A program made the translations under genes and the position numbers. Positions 4,193-64,000 of a stretch of DNA of 64,000 nucleotides are shown here, one piece after another; position 1 is the stretch's first letter, and every line of letters begins with the position of its first letter. This DNA is from Acidobacteriota bacterium (GTDB taxonomy: Bacteria > Acidobacteriota > UBA4820 > DSQY01), in the NCBI GenBank assembly GCA_049967655.1, contig JBMFSH010000013.1:1-64000 (forward strand). The letters run 5' to 3'. The notes beneath the pieces are model-generated. The model was not told the DNA's origin, made no database searches, and saw only the letters and a program-made list of their open reading frames with translations.

Positions 4193-6004
4193 GTGCGCCG
4201 AGAAGATCTGAGAAACATCGCCATCATCGCCCACGTGGACCACGGGAAGACCACATTGGTGGATGCCATGCTCTGGCAGTCCGGCATTTTCCGCGCCAAC
4301 CAGGAGGTGGCCGAGCGCGTGATGGACTCCAACGATCTCGAGAGGGAGAAGGGGATCACCATCCTCGCCAAGAACACCTCCGTGGCCTTTCAAGGGGTCA
4401 AGATCAACATCGTGGATACCCCCGGCCACGCCGATTTTGGCGGCGAGGTGGAGCGGGCCCTGACCATGGTGGACGGCGTGCTGCTCCTGGTGGATGCCGC
4501 TGAGGGGCCACTGCCCCAGAGCCGCTTCGTACTCAAAAAGTCCCTGGAGCGGGGGCTGCCCTGCGTCGTGGTGATCAACAAGATCGATCGACAGGACGCC
4601 CGGCCGCAGGAGGTTCTGAACGACATCTTCGACCTCTTCATCGATCTGGAGGCCACGGAGGAGCAGATCGATTTCCCGGTCCTGTACACCAACGCCAGGC
4701 GTGGCACGGCCACGCGCCGTCTGGAGGAGCCCGGTACGAGTTTGCTCCCGCTGTTCGAGACCATCCTCTCCGCCGTGCCCCCGCCCGAGTTCGACGAGGC
4801 GGAGCCGCTGCAGGCCTGGGTCACCAACGTGGACTACAGCGACTACGTGGGCCGCATGGCCCTCTGCCGGGTCATCAACGGCCGCCTGCGCTCCGCCCAG
4901 GAGTGCCTGCTCATGCAGGAGGGCGGACAGGTGAAGGGCAAGGTAACGGCGCTCTACACGTTTCAGGGGCTCGACAGGGTGGAGGCCCAGGAGGTTGGCG
5001 CGGGCGACCTCTGCGCTGTAGCGGGTTTCGCCGAAGTGGGCATCGGCGACACGCTGGCCGATCCGGTGGCCCCCAAGGCCCTTCCCCGCATCCGGGTGGA
5101 TGAGCCCACGCTCTCCATGATCTTCTCGGCCAACACCTCGCCCTTCGCTGGAAAGGAGGGACGCTTCGTGACGGCCCGGCAGATCCGAAACCGGCTGGAG
5201 CGGGAGGCCAAGCGGAACGTGAGCCTGCGCATCCTCTTCCCCGAGACGGGCGACCAGGTGGAGGTCATGGGCAGGGGGGAGCTGCAGCTCGCCATCCTCA
5301 TCGAAACCATGCGCCGAGAGGGGTTCGAGCTCGCCGTCAGCCGTCCCAGGATCATCACCAGGCTGGCTGAGGGCGGGGGCGTCCTGGAGCCCATGGAACT
5401 CGTTCAGGTGGACTGCCCGGAGGAGTTCATGGGGGCCGTGACCCAGCTTCTGGGAACGCGGCGGGGACGCATGCTCAAGCTCACCAACCACGGCTCGGGG
5501 CGGATCCGGATGGAGTGGCGCGTGCCGAGCCGGGGTCTCATCGGATTCAGGACCCGCTTCCTCACGGACACTCGCGGCACGGGGATTATCAACCACCTCT
5601 TCGACGGTTACGAGGCCTGGCAGGGTTCCATCCCCGGGCGGGTGACGGGCGCCCTGGTGGCGGACCGGCCGGGCCGGGCGACGGGGCACGCCATCGAGCA
5701 CCTTCAGGCCCGGGGCGAGTTCTTCATCTCGCCCGGCACCTCCGTCTACGAGGGGATGGTGGTCGGGGAGCACGCCCGCGAGAACGACCTTGACGTGAAC
5801 ATCGTCAAGGAGAAGCACCTCACCAACATGCGCGCCTCCACGGCGGACGACGCCATCAAGCTGGTTCCGCCCCGCGTTCTCGGCCTGGAGCTGTGCCTGG
5901 AGTTCCTCGGCGAGGACGAGCTCCTCGAAGTCACCCCCGACTCGCTCCGCATCCGCAAGAAGGTCCTGAAGGCCCAGGACCGGTACCGGGACAGACCGCA
6001 CTAG
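4193..6004 (+). CDS. typA: Translational GTPase TypA/BipA
   Basis: [37 protein letters not shown]-terminal KHLTNMRAS...EDELLEVTP. Confidence 0.97.
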
Positions 6005-55684: not shown

Positions 55685-57595
55685 ATGAAGTGCACCGTAA
55701 CGTCTCTGATGGCCGCGGCCGTGGCGTCCCTCTTCTTGGCGGGGGCGACCGTCCAAGCTATGGACCGATCCAAGATACCCGACCAGGACAAATGGGACCT
55801 TTCGGACCTCTATCCGACGGACGACGCCTGGGAGTCGGCCAAGAAGGACCTCGAAAAGCGGCTCCCCGAGGTGGCCCGGTACAAGGGCAAGCTGGGCAGC
55901 TCCCCGAAGGAGCTGCTGGGCTGCATGAGCCTCCTCTTCGACCTGAAGAAGGAGTTCACTCGCCTGGCCACCTACGCCTCTCAGAAATCGGATCTCGACG
56001 TCCGGGACGCCCACGCCATGGAGATGAGACAGTCCCTGGACCCCCTCGGCGCGGAGTTCGGCGCCAAGACGGCCTGGGTGGATCCGGAGATCCTGGAGAT
56101 CCCCAGCGCCAAGATCGAGGCCTTTTTGAAGGAGGAGCCCGGTCTTGCGATCTACAAGCCGGTCATCGTGGAGATCGTCCGCCTCAAGCCGCACACGCTC
56201 TCGCCGGCCGAGGAGAAGATCATGGCCGATGCCTCGCTGGTGTCGGGAACGCCGGATTCCATCTACAGCGTCTTTTCGGATGCCGACAACCCGAGGGCCA
56301 CGGTCACCCTCAGCGACGGCGCGACGGTCAAGCTGGACGCTTCGGCCTACACCAAATACCGGGCCGTGGCCAACCGCTGGGACCGCGAGGCCGTCTTCCA
56401 GGCCTTCTTCGGCAACCTGGACCAGTTCAAGGGCACCTACGGCGCCCTGCTCAACGGCGAGGTGGACAAGGACCTCTTCTTCGCCAAGGCCCGCAACTAC
56501 AAAGACTGCCTCAGCTCGGCCCTGGACGGGCCCAACATCCCCACGGTGGTCTACACCAACCTCCTCAAGAACGTCCACAAGAATCTGCCCACCCTCTGGC
56601 GCTACCTCAAGCTGCGCCAGCGGATCATGGGGCTGGACCAGCTCCGCTACTCGGACCTCTACGCGCCCATCGTCAAAGAGGTGGACGAGAAGTACACGGC
56701 GGACCAGGCCAAGGACCTCGTCCTGAAGGCTGTGGCGCCTTTAGGCCAGGACTACGTGGAGGTTCTGAAGAACGGGTACGCGCATCGCTGGGTTGACTTC
56801 TATCCCTCGCCGGGCAAGCACAGCGGCGCCTACAGCAACGGCGCGGCCTACGAGGTCCACCCCTTCATGCTTCTCAATTTCAACGGCAGCTACGAGGACG
56901 TCTCGACCCTGGCCCACGAGTCGGGCCACACCATGCACAGCTACTACTCCAACAAGACCCAGCCCTTCCCCACGAGCGACTACACCATCTTCGTGGCCGA
57001 GGTGGCGAGCACCTGCAACGAGAACCTTCTCATGGACTACATGCTCAAGCACACCGACAGCGACGCCATGAAGCTCTTCCTCCTGGGAAGCTACGTGGAC
57101 AACATCCGCCAGACGCTCTTCCGGCAGGCGCAGTTCGCCGAGTTCGAGCTGAAGATCCACCAGATGGTGGAGAGCGGCCAGCCGCTCACGGGCGAGAACC
57201 TCAACAAAACCTACGCCGGCATCATCGACGAGTACTACGGCGTGCCGCAGGGGATCACCCACATCAACCCGGTCTGCTACTCCGAGTGGGCCTTCATCCC
57301 GCACTTCTACTACAACTTCTACGTCTACAGCTACGCCACCTCCATCACCGCCTCCACGGCCATCTCGCAGATGATCATAGAGGGCAAGCCGGACGCCGTG
57401 AAGGACTACCGGAGGTTCCTGACCCTCGGCAACTCGCTGCCGCCGGTGGAGGAGCTCAAGGTGGCCGGCGTCGACATGACCACCGATGCCCCCTTCGACA
57501 TCACCATGAAGGCCATGAACAGGGCGATGGACCAGATGGAAGCCATTCTCAACAAGATGGACGCCCAGAAGAAGGCCGCACCGGCCGGCAAATAG
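55685..57595 (+). CDS. pepF: Oligoendopeptidase F (M3B) with signal peptide
   Basis: KWDLSDLY, GKHSGAYS, LAHESGH (HExxH), FVAEVAS..NE, IPHFY.NFYVY.YA. Confidence 0.93.
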   Translation: MKCTVTSLMAAAVASLFLAGATVQAMDRSKIPDQDKWDLSDLYPTDDAWESAKKDLEKRLPEVARYKGKLGSSPKELLGCMSLLFDLKKEFTRLATYASQKSDLDVRDAHAMEMRQSLDPLGAEFGAKTAWVDPEILEIPSAKIEAFLKEEPGLAIYKPVIVEIVRLKPHTLSPAEEKIMADASLVSGTPDSIYSVFSDADNPRATVTLSDGATVKLDASAYTKYRAVANRWDREAVFQAFFGNLDQFKGTYGALLNGEVDKDLFFAKARNYKDCLSSALDGPNIPTVVYTNLLKNVHKNLPTLWRYLKLRQRIMGLDQLRYSDLYAPIVKEVDEKYTADQAKDLVLKAVAPLGQDYVEVLKNGYAHRWVDFYPSPGKHSGAYSNGAAYEVHPFMLLNFNGSYEDVSTLAHESGHTMHSYYSNKTQPFPTSDYTIFVAEVASTCNENLLMDYMLKHTDSDAMKLFLLGSYVDNIRQTLFRQAQFAEFELKIHQMVESGQPLTGENLNKTYAGIIDEYYGVPQGITHINPVCYSEWAFIPHFYYNFYVYSYATSITASTAISQMIIEGKPDAVKDYRRFLTLGNSLPPVEELKVAGVDMTTDAPFDITMKAMNRAMDQMEAILNKMDAQKKAAPAGK

Positions 57596-57829: not shown

Positions 57830-58270
57830 TCAAAGATCCAGGGGCTCGATGGTGGCCACGGCCGAAGGGTCATTCCGCCACACGGCGGGGTCCGCGTCCA
57901 CGTACAGTTCGACCTCGATGCCGTCGGGGTCGGTCACGTAGAGCGCCTGGCTCACCCGATGGTCGCTCGCGCCCAGGATGGGGACGCCGTGTCTTTCGAG
58001 GTGATCCCGCCAAGCGCGCAGCTCCTCCATGCCGTCGCCCACCTTGAAGGCCACGTGGTAAAGGCCCACGGAGCGGGGGTGGGGCGAAGGCGCCTCCGCC
58101 CCCACCTCCTGCAGGGCCAGGTCATGATGGTTCTCGCCCAGAGAGAAGAAGACCATCCGGCCTCCATAGCGCGCCACCTCCTTGAGGCCGAGTACCTCCC
58201 CGTAGAAGCGGACCGAGCGCTCCAATTCTCGGACCCTCAGGACCACGTGGCCGAGCCGCTTGACGCGCAT
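57830..58270 (-). CDS. VOC/glyoxalase family protein
   Basis: [43 protein letters not shown]. Confidence 0.9.
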
Positions 58271-58299
58271 GCTTCACCTCGCCCCTTTCTCGCTCCCCG

Positions 58300-58914
58300 T
58301 CACTTGGCGCACAGCCTGCTGGCGATCTCAGCCACGTGTTTGCCCTGGAATCGGGCGATGGCCAGCTCGTTCTCGCTGGGCTGGCGCTGGCCCTGGCCGC
58401 CCGTGATCGTGGAGGCCCCGTAGGGCGATCCGCCGGTGATCTCGTCGAGGGTCATTTGCCGGGCCTCGGAGTAGGGGACGCCCACCACCATCATGCCGTG
58501 GTGCAGAAGCGTGGTGTGGAAGCTCAGGATCGTGCTCTCCTGGCCGCCGTGCTGGGTGGCCGTGGCCGTGAAGACGCCGCCCACCTTGCCGATGAGGGCG
58601 CCCTTGGCCCAGAGGCCGCCGGTCTGGTCGAGGAAGTTGCGCATCTGGGCGCACATGCTTCCGAAGCGCGTGGGAGCGCCGAAGAGGATGGCGTCGGCCT
58701 CGGCGAGCTGATCAGGGGCGATGACCGGGACGTGGGCGAAGCTCTTGCGGGCCGCCGTCGCGCCGCTCTTCTCCAGGACCTCCGGGGGGACGAGCTCGGG
58801 GACCTGGAAGAGCTTCACTTCGGCTCCGGGAACCTGCCTCGCCCCTTCGGCCACGGCCTCGGCCATCTTGTAGATGTGTCCGTACATGCTGTAGAAAACG
58901 ACGTAAGCTTTCAT
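58300..58914 (-). CDS. wrbA: NAD(P)H:quinone oxidoreductase WrbA
   Basis: [43 protein letters not shown]. Confidence 0.95.
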
Positions 58915-58936
58915 GAGACACCTCCTGGTTTTTGGT

Positions 58937-59425
58937 TCACTCCTTTAGGGGCTCGGTGCCGCCCGTGTGCTGCCTCACGCCCAGGCCGAGGGAACGGCAG
59001 AGGGCGCGCAGGTTCTCCTGTTCTCGCGGCGAGAGTACGGCCATCTCGTCCACGATGAGGGCCAGGTGCTCCCTGAAGACGCGCTCGATGAGGCGCCGGC
59101 CCTCGGAGGTGAGGCTCACCGTGACGTAGCGGCGGTCCGATCCGTCCCGGTCGCGGCGGACCAGGCCCTGCCTCTCCAAGTTGTCCACGACGAGGGTGAT
59201 GTTGCCCCCGCTCCTGAGCAGCTTGCTCCCCAGATCGCGCTGGCAGAGCGGGCCCAAATGGAGCAGGGCCTCCAGAGCCCCGAACTGGGTCATGGTCAGA
59301 CCCTTGCCCGCCAGATCGCGGGCCAGACGGGCGGAGAGCGACTCCCCGGCCCGCATGAGCGTGATGAAGGCGTTCAGCGCCCTCTTCTCCTCCTCGGTGC
59401 CTCGGTAGTGCGTCCCCATGACCAC
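58937..59425 (-). CDS. MarR family transcriptional regulator (start may be 59419)
   Basis: [42 protein letters not shown]. Confidence 0.92.
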
Positions 59426-59614: not shown

Positions 59615-60292
59615 ATGAGAAGAGATGAGGTTGCCAAGGGGCGGGGACGGGGAAAATCGCTTCCCGCTTTGGCGGCCGGCGCGGCGGTGCTCTGCCTGCT
59701 GCTCGGGGCGGCAGGAGCCCGCGCGCTGAAAGGGTGCCCCACCCACCCCGCCGGCCTGGCCGTGCCGCGAGGAGATCTCCCCGGCCTACCCAACTTCGCC
59801 CGGGTCTCCGACGGGCTCTACCGGGGCGCCCAGCCCACGCGGGAAGGGTTCGAGGGCCTGAAAGCCATGGGGGTCCGAACGGTCATCAACCTTCGGAACC
59901 ACCACAGCGATGCCCCCCTTTTGGCGGACCTGGGCTTTCGGTACGTGGAGATTCCGTGCGACGCTTGGCGCATGGAGGACGCCCCGGTGGTCCTCTTCCT
60001 GAAGCTGGCCACCGACGAGGCCTGCCAGCCGGTCTTTGTGCACTGCCAGCACGGTTCCGACCGCACCGGGATCATGGTTGCGGCCTACCGCGTGGTGGTT
60101 CAGGATTGGGACCCCTCGCTGGCGGAAGCGGAGTTGCCGAACTTCGGCTTTCACCCGGTCTTTCTGAACCTCAGTCGCTACGTCGCGGGCCTGGATGGGG
60201 CCAGTTTGCGCGCACAGGTGCGGGAGATGCCCGATCCGATGATTCCCGCCGGGCCTCGGCTCGCCCAACCGGCCCCCGGAGGCTTACCATGA
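59615..60292 (+). CDS. Cys-based protein-tyrosine/dual-specificity phosphatase with N-terminal signal or anchor
   Basis: NFARV...LYRGAQP, VRTVINLR, VFVHCQHGSDRTG (HCx5R); hydrophobic N-terminus. Confidence 0.88.
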   Translation: MRRDEVAKGRGRGKSLPALAAGAAVLCLLLGAAGARALKGCPTHPAGLAVPRGDLPGLPNFARVSDGLYRGAQPTREGFEGLKAMGVRTVINLRNHHSDAPLLADLGFRYVEIPCDAWRMEDAPVVLFLKLATDEACQPVFVHCQHGSDRTGIMVAAYRVVVQDWDPSLAEAELPNFGFHPVFLNLSRYVAGLDGASLRAQVREMPDPMIPAGPRLAQPAPGGLP

Positions 60293-60738
60293 GGCACAGG
60301 AGCCGAGGTTCCACGACCTTCCCCGCCCTGATTTGGCTGCTGGCCCTGTTGGCGGTGGTGCTGTGCCTGCCCCTGCTCTTCCTGGGGGCGATCTTCGTCC
60401 TCTCGGCCTTCCACCCCGACGCGGTGGCGCAGGGCAAGAGCCTCCCCAGGGCGGCGATCGGTGGAATCCTCCTGCTGGGAGGCCTGCTGCTGGTTGCTCT
60501 GGCCGTGGTCCTCGCCCGCAATGCCATGCGGGACAACGGCCGGCCGGGGGATCTCTCCGGTGGCGTGGCCGGGGGGCAGGAGCCGCCGGGAGAGATCCAT
60601 CTCAAGGCGCTCAACTGCCCGCACTGCGGCGGCCAGGTGGATGCCTCCACGGCGCGCCTGAATCCCGAGGGGACGCTCACCCTCACCTGCCCCTACTGCA
60701 AGGGCTCCTTCCTGATCCAGGAGGAGCCAAAGTGGTGA
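60289..60738 (+). CDS. Two-TM membrane protein with C-terminal zinc ribbon
   Basis: Two hydrophobic helices, then CPHCGG...CPYCKG...EEPKW; ATGA overlap with the phosphatase gene. Confidence 0.75.
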   Translation: MRHRSRGSTTFPALIWLLALLAVVLCLPLLFLGAIFVLSAFHPDAVAQGKSLPRAAIGGILLLGGLLLVALAVVLARNAMRDNGRPGDLSGGVAGGQEPPGEIHLKALNCPHCGGQVDASTARLNPEGTLTLTCPYCKGSFLIQEEPKW

Positions 60739-60869
60739 TCGCGGCGAAGCCGCGATCACCATCCCGAGGGCTTCCTCAAAGGCAGTCCCCGGAGGGATCG
60801 GGTGGTTCTCGAGGAGATTGATGGGCGAAAGCGCGGCGAAGGCCGCCCGCTTCGGAGGGAGAAAGGATC

Positions 60870-62408
60870 ATGAAGAGACTGTTCGTGGCCTTGGTGGCCG
60901 TGGCGGTGGGCCTCTCCGTCCTGGCCGATTACCGGTTCGAGGTGCCGCAGAACCGCAGCGTCGTCGAAGTGAATCGCGATGCCTCCATCACCATTCGGTA
61001 CGCCATCACCTTCCGGAATCAGGGACAGCCGATCGACGTCATCGACGTGGGCCTCCCCGACGGCCAGTACGATCTGAAGGGGGTGAAGGCGGACCTGGAC
61101 GGGGCGCCCCTGACGGATATCCGGCCCTCTTCCTACCTCCAGTACGGGGTGGAGGTCCACCTAGGCGAGAGGGCCATTGCCGCGGGCTCCGAGGGGACGC
61201 TGCACCTCTCGGCCGTGGCCAAGAACAGGGTGTTCCCCGACAGCAAGGACCCCTCCTACGCCAGCCTTGAATTCAGCCCCACTTGGTACGGCTCGCAGTA
61301 CACCTCGGGGACCACTCTCCTGGTCTGCAGCTTCATCTTCCCGGAAGGCGTGGGGCCTGACGATCCCCGTTACCACGGTAGGCCTTTCACCTCGGCCCGG
61401 GTGGAGCAGGGCCGGGTCATCTACACGTGGGACCGGCCGAACGCCTCTCCCTCTCGCCAATACACCTTCGGGGCATCGTTCCCGGCCAAGGTCATGGAGC
61501 GTCTGGCCGCCGTTCCGAAGGGGCCGGGGCCGGCAGCCGCGATAGCGGCGGCCATGGGGACGCTCATCCTCGGCGCCTTGCCCTGCGTCTTCGTGGTCGC
61601 CTTCTTCGGCCTCTTCATCCTGGTGATCGTCCAGTCCCGGCGCCGGCGCCTCCAGTACCTGCCGCCCAGCATCGGGATGGAGGGAGTGGAGGTGCGGAGG
61701 GGGCTGACGGTGCCCGAGGTGGCCGTCCTCATGGAGGAGCCCGTGGACAAGGTGATGGCCCTCCTCCTCTTCGGAATGATCCGCAAGAACCTCGTGAAGG
61801 TCGTGGGGCGATCGCCCCTGAAGCTGGAGCTGGTACCCGGGGAGTCCCCGGCCGCGGACTACGAGCAGGCCTTCGCCAAGGCCGTTCAGGACGACGGACG
61901 AATCAGCGAGAAGGAGGCGGTGGCGGTCCTGACGGATCTCATCAAGCGGGTCCAAGAGAAGATGAAGGGCTTCAGCCGGAAGAAGAGCGTCCTCTACTAC
62001 CAAGAGATCATGAGGAAGGCGTGGGAGCAGGTGGGGAGCCAGGACTACGCCCAGGCCTTCGAGTGGATGCTCCTGGACCGTGAGTTCGGTCAGCGGGCCG
62101 CCCAGCGTTTCGGGAGCAACCCCATGCCGCTCCCCGTCTGGTGGGTGCCCCTGTACACCGGCCAGACGGCCGGCGCTACGGTAGGTGGGGCGCCCGCTCC
62201 GAGCCCCGTGGCGGCGGCCAACACCGTTGTGACGGGGCTGGAGGGGTTCGCCCACGACCTGGTGAACAGCGTCCCCGGCCTCGCCACCCAGGTCACCGAG
62301 CGGACGAATCCCGTGCCGCAGTCTTCGGGGAGCGCTTCGGGAGGCGGCTGTGCCTGTGCGTGCGCTTGCGCCGGCTGCGCCTGCGCCTGCGCGGGAGGCG
62401 GAAGATGA
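60870..62408 (+). CDS. Membrane protein (DUF2207-like exported domain) with a C-terminal Cys/Ala repeat tail
   Basis: Signal peptide, beta-rich domain, TM segment followed by RRRR, helical domain, end SGGGCACACACAGCACACAGGGR*. Confidence 0.85.
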   Translation: MKRLFVALVAVAVGLSVLADYRFEVPQNRSVVEVNRDASITIRYAITFRNQGQPIDVIDVGLPDGQYDLKGVKADLDGAPLTDIRPSSYLQYGVEVHLGERAIAAGSEGTLHLSAVAKNRVFPDSKDPSYASLEFSPTWYGSQYTSGTTLLVCSFIFPEGVGPDDPRYHGRPFTSARVEQGRVIYTWDRPNASPSRQYTFGASFPAKVMERLAAVPKGPGPAAAIAAAMGTLILGALPCVFVVAFFGLFILVIVQSRRRRLQYLPPSIGMEGVEVRRGLTVPEVAVLMEEPVDKVMALLLFGMIRKNLVKVVGRSPLKLELVPGESPAADYEQAFAKAVQDDGRISEKEAVAVLTDLIKRVQEKMKGFSRKKSVLYYQEIMRKAWEQVGSQDYAQAFEWMLLDREFGQRAAQRFGSNPMPLPVWWVPLYTGQTAGATVGGAPAPSPVAAANTVVTGLEGFAHDLVNSVPGLATQVTERTNPVPQSSGSASGGGCACACACAGCACACAGGGR

Positions 62409-62469
62409 ACGGCCCGAAGGGAAATAGGCTCGACCTGGTGCTCGGCAGTGAGGCCAAAGGGAGGATGCC

Positions 62470-63816
62470 ATGGGGCTGAGAGACCTCTTCAGGAGAACCG
62501 AGCGGGTCAAGGCGGGACTCTACCCGGGAACCCTCGTCGTGGAGGGGACCGCCCACCGGATTCACCTCCGGGTCGAGCCCTCGGGAGCCGGGATCCTCAC
62601 CCTCGACGCCAGCCGGATCCTCCACCTGAACCCCACCGCGGCGGAGATGGTGAAGCACCTGGTGGACGGGTTGAGCGAGCCCGAGACGGTGGAACTCATG
62701 GCCCGGCGCTATCGCGTGAAGCGCGCCGTATTGGAGCCGGACCTCTCGCGCATCCTCCAGGCGGTGCGCACGCTCTCCGCCACGGACCAGGTCTGTCCCC
62801 TGTCGGACCTGGGGATCGAGCTCATCGAACCCTTCTCAACCGCCATGAGCGCCCCGCTGCGCATGGACTTGGCCCTCACCTACCGCTGCCAGAACCGGTG
62901 CAGCCACTGCTACAACCAGGAGTTCAGGGAGGTCTCCGAGCTGGACACGGCAGGCTGGAGGCGGGTGCTGGAGGCCTGCGAGTCGGCGGGAATCCCGCAC
63001 GTGGTCTTCACGGGAGGCGAGCCCACGCTCCGCGACGACCTTCCCGTGCTGGTGGCCTACGCGGGAGAACTGGGGCTGGTCACGGGCCTCAACACCAACG
63101 GGCGGCGCCTGCGGGACGCCGCCTACACGGGGGCGCTTCGGGAGGCCGGTCTGGATCACGTCCAGATCACCCTGGAGTCGGCCGATCCAAGCCTCCACAA
63201 CGCCCTGACTCGATCCGACTCCTTCGAGGAGACCCTGGCCGGGCTCCGCGAGTCCAAGGCTTCGGGCCTCTTCACCCTGACCAACACCACGCTCACGCGG
63301 GTCAACCTGCCCGGCATCGAAAATCTCGTGGACCTGGTGGCCGCCGAGGGTCTCGGCACCTTCGCCGTCAACGGGATGATCTACTCGGGCAAGGGCAAGA
63401 GCTCGGGCATCGACCTCACCTCGCGGGAGGTCGTCCCCGTTCTGGAGACGCTGGCCCGGCTGGCCCGCGAAAAGGGTCTCCGCTTCGTCTGGTACACCCC
63501 GACGCGGTACTGCGAGCTGAACCCCGTGGAGATGGCGCTCGGCGTCAAGCAGTGCACGGCGGCCCGATTGAGCATGGCGGTCGAGCCGGACGGAACGGTC
63601 ATTCCCTGCCAATCCTATTACGAAGGCGTAGGCAACCTTCTGACCGATTCATGGGAGTCCATCTGGAACCACCCCCTCTGCCTCAAGCTCCGTCAGCCCC
63701 AGAAGCCCCTGCCCGAGTGCGAGGCCTGCGAGCACCTCAGCCTCTGCGGGGGCGGGTGTCCGCTGGAGGCTGCGCACCAGAAGCTGACCTGCCGCGAGGT
63801 GGCGAGCGGGGGGTGA
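62470..63816 (+). CDS. Radical SAM/SPASM protein with N-terminal PqqD/RRE-like domain
   Basis: LHLNPTAAEMV..L.DG...ET...MA.RY.V (PqqD-like); CQNRCSHC; FTGGEP; NTNG; SPASM C..IPC..GNL..CEAC-x5-C-GGG-C. Confidence 0.92.
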   Translation: MGLRDLFRRTERVKAGLYPGTLVVEGTAHRIHLRVEPSGAGILTLDASRILHLNPTAAEMVKHLVDGLSEPETVELMARRYRVKRAVLEPDLSRILQAVRTLSATDQVCPLSDLGIELIEPFSTAMSAPLRMDLALTYRCQNRCSHCYNQEFREVSELDTAGWRRVLEACESAGIPHVVFTGGEPTLRDDLPVLVAYAGELGLVTGLNTNGRRLRDAAYTGALREAGLDHVQITLESADPSLHNALTRSDSFEETLAGLRESKASGLFTLTNTTLTRVNLPGIENLVDLVAAEGLGTFAVNGMIYSGKGKSSGIDLTSREVVPVLETLARLAREKGLRFVWYTPTRYCELNPVEMALGVKQCTAARLSMAVEPDGTVIPCQSYYEGVGNLLTDSWESIWNHPLCLKLRQPQKPLPECEACEHLSLCGGGCPLEAAHQKLTCREVASGG

Positions 63817-63976
63817 GGGAGCCGCCGCAGGGCGAAGGGGAGCGGGGGAACGGGGAGGTTCCCCCGCGCGCAGGGCATCCCGCGCAAGGGCCGGGAGGAG
63901 CAGCGAGCCGGCGAAGCCGGTGAAGCGCCGAGGAGGGCCGGCCGAGGCCCTCCTCGGGGAGCGCCAGTGGCGCGAC

Positions 63977-64000
63977 GCGGGGGCGGGTGTCCGCTGGAGG
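63977..64000 (+). repeat. Exact 24-bp copy of 63746-63769, cut by the window edge
   Basis: GCGGGGGCGGGTGTCCGCTGGAGG at both positions. Confidence 0.8.

Follow-up and report, generated by a model that had tools for sequence, protein, structure and literature searches.

A conserved cassette of three genes occupies positions 60289-63816 of a 64,000-nucleotide stretch of DNA (hereafter the window) from an Acidobacteriota bacterium (UBA4820; DSQY01; assembly GCA_049967655.1, contig JBMFSH010000013.1, positions 1-64,000 of the forward strand), and encodes a zinc-ribbon protein, a membrane protein that ends in a tail of alternating cysteine and alanine, and a radical S-adenosylmethionine (SAM) enzyme. 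That a Cys-Ala-tailed protein is encoded together with a peptide-modifying enzyme suggests that a whole membrane protein is modified in a way not yet described. The reading that we favour, and consider probable, is that of a conserved three-component system in which the cytoplasmic tail is modified by the enzyme while part of the full-length protein, thioether crosslinks being the most plausible product. Every element that an earlier, sequence-only reading had described in this region was found in place, and its proposal that the tail of the adjacent membrane protein is the substrate of the enzyme gains support from the gene linkage described below.

Linkage of the enzyme and the Cys-Ala tail

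It is evident from related loci that the tail and the enzyme occur together. Eighty such loci were gathered from species-representative genomes, one of the seed patterns having been derived from the tail. The enzyme gene lies within 1.5 kb downstream on the same strand in 62 of the 80 and upstream within the locus in a further six, while three break off at a contig end less than 1.5 kb past the tail gene. The other nine loci lack the enzyme; the genomes of seven of these were searched whole (L050 and L052 were left out), and all seven hold an ortholog elsewhere, at 410-474 bits. Further, two samples of genomes were chosen regardless of the tail. Among 401 Acidobacteriota genomes the membrane protein was found in 46, and in 44 of these the enzyme lies on the same contig; in the remaining two (G104 and G312) the membrane-protein gene sits at or near a contig end. 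Among 251 Chloroflexota genomes the membrane protein was found in 21, each with the enzyme adjacent at a score of at least 506 bits, whereas a first-copy enzyme was found in none of the 230 genomes without the membrane protein; one of these, G628, has no more than a paralog-like frame interrupted by two stops. The sequence-only reading had proposed to check whether tail-bearing proteins come with this enzyme, and the linked loci, the unlinked genomes and the two phylum samples agree that they do.

Clustering of open reading frames (ORFs) over the 80 loci revealed no conserved short same-strand ORF, protease, or exporter or transporter. The DNA 3' of the enzyme gene is not conserved even in comparison with a relative whose enzyme is 96% identical, save for a duplicated piece of the 3' end of the gene. 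The possibility of a separate precursor peptide conserved beyond position 64,000, raised at the outset, was thus followed in both ways, and no such conserved gene was found. By their record titles, the carriers belong to the Acidobacteriota, Chloroflexota, Cloacimonadota, Zixibacteria, Edwardsbacteria and Coatesbacteria, together with a deltaproteobacterium and a Thermoplasmatota archaeon, and among the carrier records at least one (L060) is that of a named strain, Bellilinea caldifistulae GOMI-1.

The pairing persists in layouts that differ from that of the window. Three enzyme-positive genomes of the Acidobacteriota sample (G046, G060 and G133, with enzyme relatives at 285-309 bits) lack the membrane protein; in G046 (L087) and G133 (L088) the neighbours of the enzyme gene are one to three genes in tandem, whose products of 312-341 residues end in CACACVSCACACACAGGGG... 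(a CACACVSCACACACAGGGGAGC... tail). Three tandem copies of the tail protein are encoded in L087, where the tail is extended by a C-x2-C ending. A zinc-ribbon homolog was not found in G133 or in G060, a genome about 80% complete, and G046 gave a 23-bit match only. A further arrangement, with the genes in the order zinc ribbon, radical SAM enzyme, 'dead' radical SAM paralog and membrane protein, occurs in both Acidobacteriota and Chloroflexota (L085, L086, L089 and L090); its tails have three and four Cys on the two sides of the Ala-Gly hinge (3+4), or two and four in the separately fetched locus L089. In a FastTree phylogeny of 112 enzyme sequences, the 3+4-layout enzymes of both phyla form one clade with a local support of 98, and the 4+3 and 5+3 types are intermixed. 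As the enzyme stands beside a (Cys-Ala)n tail in all layouts, the enzyme and the tail constitute the constant pairing. A TPM-domain gene comes next in both the G046 and G133 loci, and a LemA-family gene too in G133; two Cys-Ala-tailed genes per locus are seen in L018, L020-L023 and L037.

The second radical SAM paralog lacks the CX3CX2C cluster motif in all 37 cases, which come from L060 (13125-14267) and 27 other Chloroflexota and from L018, L020-L023, L026, L085, L089 and L090. In L060 it retains the PqqD domain and a portion of the Radical_SAM fold, in L085 a SPASM match, and it looks like a 'dead' partner enzyme. The genome of the window has the intact enzyme only and no second paralog.

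The tail, its carrier and the enzyme

The membrane protein terminates in GGG-CACACACAGCACACAGGGR, the full ending reading GGGCACACACAGCACACAGGGR. A (Cys-Ala)n...AGGGR ending is shared by 118 of the 120 best relatives, at identities down to 33%; the two that are tail-less are a record named partial and a fragment of 303 residues. Alignments with a mean column identity of 45% reveal the tail to be the most conserved part of the membrane protein, with 17 of its 19 positions invariant and the remaining two (A501 and the C500 region) conserved at 90% or more. Across 58 loci with an identical tail, two to six synonymous codons are used at every position and all three stop codons occur; a peptide that stays constant while its synonymous codons vary indicates selection on the peptide and not on the DNA. 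Variants in the number of Cys exist: 3+3 in five proteins among the 120 best relatives, and among the 80 loci 5+3 in 15, 3+4 in six and an unbroken run of six Cys in one, from the Thermoplasmatota archaeon. The tail is disordered in the AlphaFold 2 model, where its pLDDT score (predicted local distance difference test) stays below 50.

Ahead of the tail lies a segment with conserved columns at E458, V475, T476, T479, N480, P481 and P483 (Table 1), and the C-terminal part of the protein runs from this conserved segment through a variable Gly/Ser spacer to the invariant tail. By analogy, such a layout resembles the leader, spacer and core of the precursors of RiPPs (ribosomally synthesised and post-translationally modified peptides), in this case ending a large protein, and the pre-tail segment is a candidate docking site for the RiPP recognition element (RRE) of the enzyme. 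If the Ala-Gly hinge turns, the Cys residues would all face one side of a hairpin and the Ala residues the other, a predicted geometry that fits a ladder of crosslinks and a metal-thiolate site alike.

Of 8,000 candidates scored, more than 2,202 are relatives of the carrier of the tail at E≤0.001, but this protein has no Pfam match even at E≤10 and no NCBIfam family at E≤0.01. Its AlphaFold 2 model (mean pLDDT 82.9) begins with a signal helix, followed by a beta-sandwich that resembles the N-domains of OST1/ribophorin I and of M1 aminopeptidases (Foldseek E 3e-9 to 1e-7 over about 205 columns). The C-terminal half is predicted to be cytoplasmic from the RRRR that follows the transmembrane (TM) helix and from the positive-inside rule; as the enzyme has neither a TM segment nor a signal peptide, the tail and the enzyme would share a compartment. 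Against the PDB, Foldseek returned no match for the cytoplasmic half at E≤0.001. Comparison of the modelled half by VIA-align gave GOLPH3 at Z 7.1 (151 residues aligned, root-mean-square deviation 4.0) and Vps74 at Z 5.4, the next row standing at 3.3, and the likeness of the cytoplasmic domain to GOLPH3/Vps74 may be taken as a weak to middling lead.

The architecture that had been read from the enzyme, namely an RRE followed by a radical SAM core and a SPASM domain, is borne out by Pfam (Radical_SAM at 1.9e-24, SPASM at 2e-9 with PF13186, PqqD at 2.5e-6 with PF05402) and by the cysteine motifs. The CX3CX2C motif is present in 72 of the 75 rows labelled as first-copy enzymes. The SPASM motif is complete (C362-x12-G-x4-C380, C417-x2-C420-x5-C426-x3-C430 and C441) and invariant or nearly so in the alignment, in which R30, H32, L33, R34 and D91 are invariant too. 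The enzyme therefore appears to have every sequence feature of an RRE-dependent radical SAM/SPASM peptide maturase. It reaches the cut-off of no NCBIfam equivalog: the top match is PqqE (TIGR02109; 118.6 against 381.35 bits), MftC (TIGR03962) scores 94.2 against 265, and the sactisynthase models SkfB (TIGR04403; 64.8 against 300) and StsB (NF045574; 69.5 against 625) are likewise missed. The CrpC model TIGR04463 is not among the best 25 of 64 NCBIfam matches, so that any score it has lies below 49.8 bits. The closest solved structures by sequence are PqqE 6c8v (4.6e-21), SkfB 6efn (3.8e-15) and SuiB 5v1q. In L009, L014, L039 and L079, the enzyme gene is spread over two to four frames by tblastn, which may be assembly error or real decay; the zinc-ribbon gene of L079 is also split.

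The zinc-ribbon protein is the conserved third component of the cassette. Clustering of ORFs placed its small same-strand gene upstream of the tail gene in 73 of the 80 loci, and its motif was recognised in 72; in genomes with a lone tail gene, it is found elsewhere in five of five, at 135-153 bits. Two hydrophobic segments precede a predicted cytoplasmic ribbon, C110-x2-C113 ... C134-P-Y-C137, and C110, C113, C134, C137, E145, P147, K148 and W149 are invariant in 48 sequences, giving an E-x-P-K-W C-terminus. Searches of Pfam and NCBIfam gave only zinc-ribbon matches below threshold. In the window, the ATG of the gene overlaps the stop of the preceding phosphatase gene (ATGA, 60289-60292), which suggests translational coupling, and 61 bp separate the membrane-protein gene from the enzyme gene. 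A fused form of the zinc-ribbon protein (P0241) looks like read-through into the membrane-protein gene on a single contig and was discounted.

Table 1. Features of the cassette and of the adjoining DNA, by position in the window
Feature	Positions	Strand	Basis or remark
Phosphatase (dual-specificity/tyrosine-like), N-terminal hydrophobic segment	59615-60292	+	Pfam PTP-NADK 5.7e-17, Y_phosphatase2 8.1e-12
Zinc-ribbon membrane protein, 149 aa	60289-60738	+	Two TM segments, CPHC...CPYC, end EEPKW
Tail-bearing single-pass membrane protein, 512 aa	60870-62408	+	Signal peptide, beta-sandwich, TM helix, cytoplasmic domain, tail
Extracytoplasmic beta-sandwich, residues 23-205	60936-61484	+	AlphaFold 2, pLDDT mostly above 95
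TM helix, residues 221-262, then RRRR	61530-61655	+	Hydropathy; AlphaFold 2 helices 221-235 and 237-262 taken as one
Cytoplasmic alpha/beta domain, residues 281-430	61710-62159	+	AlphaFold 2 of the C-terminal half: pLDDT 80.2, predicted template modelling score (pTM) 0.77
Leader-like segment, residues 446-483	62205-62318	+	Helices 446-467 and 471-479 (AlphaFold 2), then V-T-x-x-T-N-P-x-P
Tail CACACACAGCACACAGGGR, residues 494-512	62349-62405	+	4+3 Cys alternating with Ala, Ala-Gly hinge; presumed substrate
Radical SAM/SPASM enzyme with PqqD-like RRE, 448 aa	62470-63816	+	Pfam
PqqD-like RRE, residues 44-99	62599-62766	+	PF05402, 28.1 bits against a gathering cut-off of 23.4
CX3CX2C cluster motif, C140/C144/C147	62887-62910	+	Invariant in 51 sequences
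SPASM domain, 7-Cys motif	63553-63792	+	PF13186, 2e-9
119-nt perfect direct repeat, copy 1	63746-63864	+	Covers the final 71 nt of the enzyme gene with its stop, plus the next 48 nt

The proposed modification and its alternatives

The modification that we favour could proceed as follows. The 512-residue protein would insert so that its beta-sandwich faces outward and its C-terminal half reaches into the cytoplasm, where the RRE of the enzyme would recognise the pre-tail segment with its helices and VTxxTNPxP stretch. The flexible Gly/Ser spacer and the tail would then enter the active site, and 5'-deoxyadenosyl radical chemistry would act on the tail as the putative substrate. The product would most plausibly be Cys thioethers, of the sactionine or ranthionine type, to carbons of neighbouring Ala or Gly residues, and a tail crosslinked in this manner would become a rigid polycyclic element. 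The zinc-ribbon protein may act as a membrane-side tether or chaperone for the enzyme or for the tail. Thioether chemistry is deemed the most plausible because of the domain architecture and the precedent of CrpC, an RRE-radical SAM-SPASM enzyme that installs ranthionine thioethers on the 28.8 kDa Cys-rich protein CrpA of Methanococcus voltae (PMC13692751).

Several observations weigh against this reading. Residues that usually accept ranthionine links (Asp, Glu, Asn, Thr, Gln) are absent from the tail, which offers only Ala, Gly and Arg, so that the chemistry may be something else, and in sequence the enzyme stands closer to PqqE, NirJ and MftC than to the known sactisynthases (118.6 bits for PqqE, 69.5 for StsB and 64.8 for SkfB). 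The invariant C-terminus of the zinc-ribbon protein and its genome-wide co-occurrence (five of five) mean that this protein could be the substrate or a co-substrate. The tail-derived seed biases the 80 loci towards tail carriers, though not towards presence of the enzyme, and related genomes are non-independent samples.

An alternative that we regard as unlikely is that the tail is a metal or iron-sulfur site, a metallothionein-like CxC or 4+3 Cys scaffold, and that what the enzyme assembles or reshapes there is an inorganic or organometallic centre. The seven Cys stand in CxC spacing and would share one face if extended, the Ala-Gly hinge permits a hairpin, the 4+3 split mirrors (by analogy only) the seven-Cys ligand set of SPASM domains, and the invariant Ala residues could serve packing instead of acting as acceptors. 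The analogues, moreover, are tied to metals: CrpA is upregulated on pyrite (PMC13692751), and MNIO-modified bufferins chelate copper (PMC12452194). However, the enzyme carries an RRE, a domain known for peptide binding; the number of Cys varies (2+4, 3+3, 3+4, 4+3, 5+3 and six without a hinge) in a way that a precise cluster would tolerate poorly; and no metal-transport or cluster-assembly genes are conserved in the cassette over the 80 loci. The tail could also become a new protein-derived cofactor tethered at the inner face of the membrane, in the form of a thioether/thiolate ladder and possibly with a metal-sulfur centre. We regard this idea, too, as unlikely; were it true, a receptor-like membrane protein would carry a built-in redox or metal site.

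We give little credence to the zinc-ribbon C-terminus (...YQxxEEPKW) as the substrate or co-substrate, possibly through a Lys-Trp crosslink, with the Cys-Ala-tailed protein as a partner or regulator. Lys-Trp crosslinking by radical SAM/SPASM enzymes is a known chemistry (streptide), and E145, P147, K148 and W149 do not vary in the 48 sequences. The gene belongs to the cassette at 72-73 of the 80 loci and is kept in all five genomes in which the genes are dispersed; its distance to the enzyme gene that follows is at most about 210 bp, or the two overlap, in all six upstream-type loci of the 80, and it is as close in three of the four fetched 3+4-layout loci, the fourth having a 267-bp gap. However, enzyme relatives occur in G046, G133 and G060, where the search for a zinc-ribbon homolog came up empty save for the 23-bit match in G046, G060 being the incomplete genome noted above, and two of these genomes, G046 and G133, have Cys-Ala-tailed proteins beside the enzyme. 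The Cys-Ala tail is, moreover, longer and more invariant, and has the leader-plus-core layout. It is equally improbable, in our view, that the link is functional only, the enzyme acting on a lipid or small molecule at the membrane while the two membrane proteins recruit or regulate it. Weak similarity of the enzyme to GDGT-MAS 7tol (1.2e-9) and Tes (49.8 bits), and of the cytoplasmic domain to the lipid-binding GOLPH3 fold, could be cited for such a target, but the likeness to lipid enzymes is confined to the shared radical SAM core, a fused RRE with a full SPASM motif is typical of peptide maturases, and the enzyme goes with the (Cys-Ala)n tail even where the N-terminal parts of the carriers differ.

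Genomic surroundings, known systems and significance

All four genes at 59615-63816 run in one direction, and the sequence-only reading had taken them as a unit. Their co-orientation stands, but a conserved unit of four does not, as tblastn found the phosphatase beside the cassette in only one of the 80 loci, that of the closest relative (L005); its presence in a single locus rules out the phosphatase as a fourth component. That no precursor, transporter or peptidase accompanies the cassette holds in the sense that none is conserved in the 80 loci; the window itself does contain a peptidase 2 kb upstream. This M3 oligoendopeptidase F-like protein (55685-57595, +; Peptidase_M3 1.4e-67) has a signal-like N-terminus, is separated from the cassette by three opposite-strand genes and is not in the neighbour families common to the related loci. 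The minus-strand trio at 57830-59425, comprising a MarR regulator, a flavodoxin-like FMN reductase (WrbA-like) and a glyoxalase-family protein, appears to form a small redox or stress unit that diverges from the cassette. Among sequencing runs, ten of DNA cover part of the stretch, the largest share being 0.33, and no RNA run covering it was listed.

The 119-nt repeat at the end of the enzyme gene has its second copy at contig positions 63977-64095, mostly outside the window, at a spacing of 231 nt (4747-4865 and 4978-5096 in L004). This copy encodes the last 23 residues of the enzyme at 96% identity within an open frame of 76 codons. A diverged duplication in the relative L005 (111 nt, 78%, spacing 236) indicates that the duplication is old and not an assembly artefact of this genome alone. 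Outside the window, contig positions 64536-65009 (5537-6010 in L004) hold an ORF of 157 residues with CPNCGG...CTYC, zinc-ribbon-like and without a Pfam family, and L004 6160-13000 encodes BacA/UppP, a class I methyltransferase, an ArsR-type regulator and an SBF/ACR3-type permease. By eye, the frames past the permease look like ArsD and an ArsA ATPase in duplicate.

In sequence, the enzyme comes closest to the PqqE/PqqD and MftC/MftB systems, which make cofactors. Common to these and the cassette are the PqqD-type RRE and action (here proposed) on an invariant core near a C-terminus; unlike them, the cassette has no PqqA- or MftA-like peptide and no other genes of the pathways, and its scores fall far below the equivalog cut-offs. 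The membrane protein is similar in overall build to DUF2207 proteins (PF09972/PF20990), which have a signal peptide, an outer beta-rich domain, a TM segment and a Gly-rich C-terminal tail; the sources of some relatives name them DUF2207, and ESM Atlas gives DUF2207 as a lead. In contrast, the protein of the window has no Pfam match even at the permissive threshold given above, and DUF2207_C matches weakly in three of 50 relatives, at a best E of 5.7e-4. To our knowledge, ordinary DUF2207 tails have neither a Cys-Ala array nor a partner radical SAM enzyme. Radical SAM/SPASM enzymes that modify Cys in proteins rather than in RiPPs exist in anSME and QhpD; by their descriptions the cassette is set apart from these, as the tail has no sulfatase C/S-x-P-x-R motif and the context is not that of an amine dehydrogenase.

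The cassette resembles the CrpC/CrpA system in that the gene of an RRE-radical SAM-SPASM enzyme adjoins that of a Cys-rich protein too large to count as a peptide, with the Cys in a C-terminal part behind a leader-like region. CrpA, as its report presents it, is soluble and has ten 17-residue repeats with C-x-x-Q/D, whereas the protein here is an integral membrane protein with one short (Cys-Ala)n tail free of Asp and Gln, and the cassette, unlike CrpC/CrpA, has a zinc-ribbon membrane protein as third partner; the main text of that report contains neither 'membrane' nor 'tail' (PMC13692751). The order of RRE, radical SAM core and SPASM/twitch domain, with a Cys-rich substrate encoded in the cluster, is shared with the SkfB, CteB/SCIFF, AlbA and StsB maturases; these act on short precursors with a cleavable leader, usually alongside protease or exporter genes (PMC10288494), none of which is conserved over the 80 loci. 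Another study puts forward the Cys/Gly/Ser-rich C-terminal tails of TIGR04222 membrane proteins as substrates of MNIO (DUF692) enzymes (PMC12452194). Both there and here, a low-complexity, Cys-bearing tail of a full-length membrane protein is the proposed target of a nearby RiPP-type enzyme. However, the TIGR04222 tails are predicted to be periplasmic and varied in sequence, and a third of the genomes lack an MNIO (PMC12452194), whereas the cassette has a radical SAM enzyme in place of an MNIO, a tail that is predicted to be cytoplasmic and is invariant, and a near-perfect association. NCBIfam gave no TIGR04222 match for the membrane protein at E≤0.01, and no MNIO was seen among the scanned neighbour genes, although no search aimed at MNIO was made.

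Neither the zinc-ribbon protein nor the enzyme clade has a family of its own above cut-off in Pfam or NCBIfam, and the membrane protein has none. No description of the cassette was found in a search of the literature that covered papers; the supplementary datasets of PMC13692751 and PMC10288494, on Cys-rich proteins associated with radical SAM enzymes and on radical SAM enzymes associated with an RRE, could include the family. The claim that no characterised example is known therefore stands for the cassette itself and is tempered, for the idea behind it, by CrpC/CrpA (PMC13692751) and by the TIGR04222/MNIO proposal (PMC12452194). Overall, the cassette is a real, widespread and uncharacterised system whose concept has these two recent neighbours.

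Finally, work on RiPP-type radical SAM chemistry has dealt nearly exclusively with small secreted peptides. In the cassette, an enzyme of this architecture seems to be devoted to the cytoplasmic tail of a membrane protein of full length, a tail that is invariant across proteins otherwise only 33-40% identical. By the records, the system is common to anaerobic bacteria of at least six phyla or candidate phyla and to at least one archaeon, and it is frequent in the Acidobacteriota and Chloroflexota genomes sampled (46 of 401 and 21 of 251). Given a named carrier strain in Bellilinea caldifistulae GOMI-1, direct proteomic tests should be feasible. The chemistry, once solved, would probably be a new crosslink topology or a new protein-bound cofactor, and would give the first functional handle on a large group of unannotated membrane proteins with Gly-rich tails.

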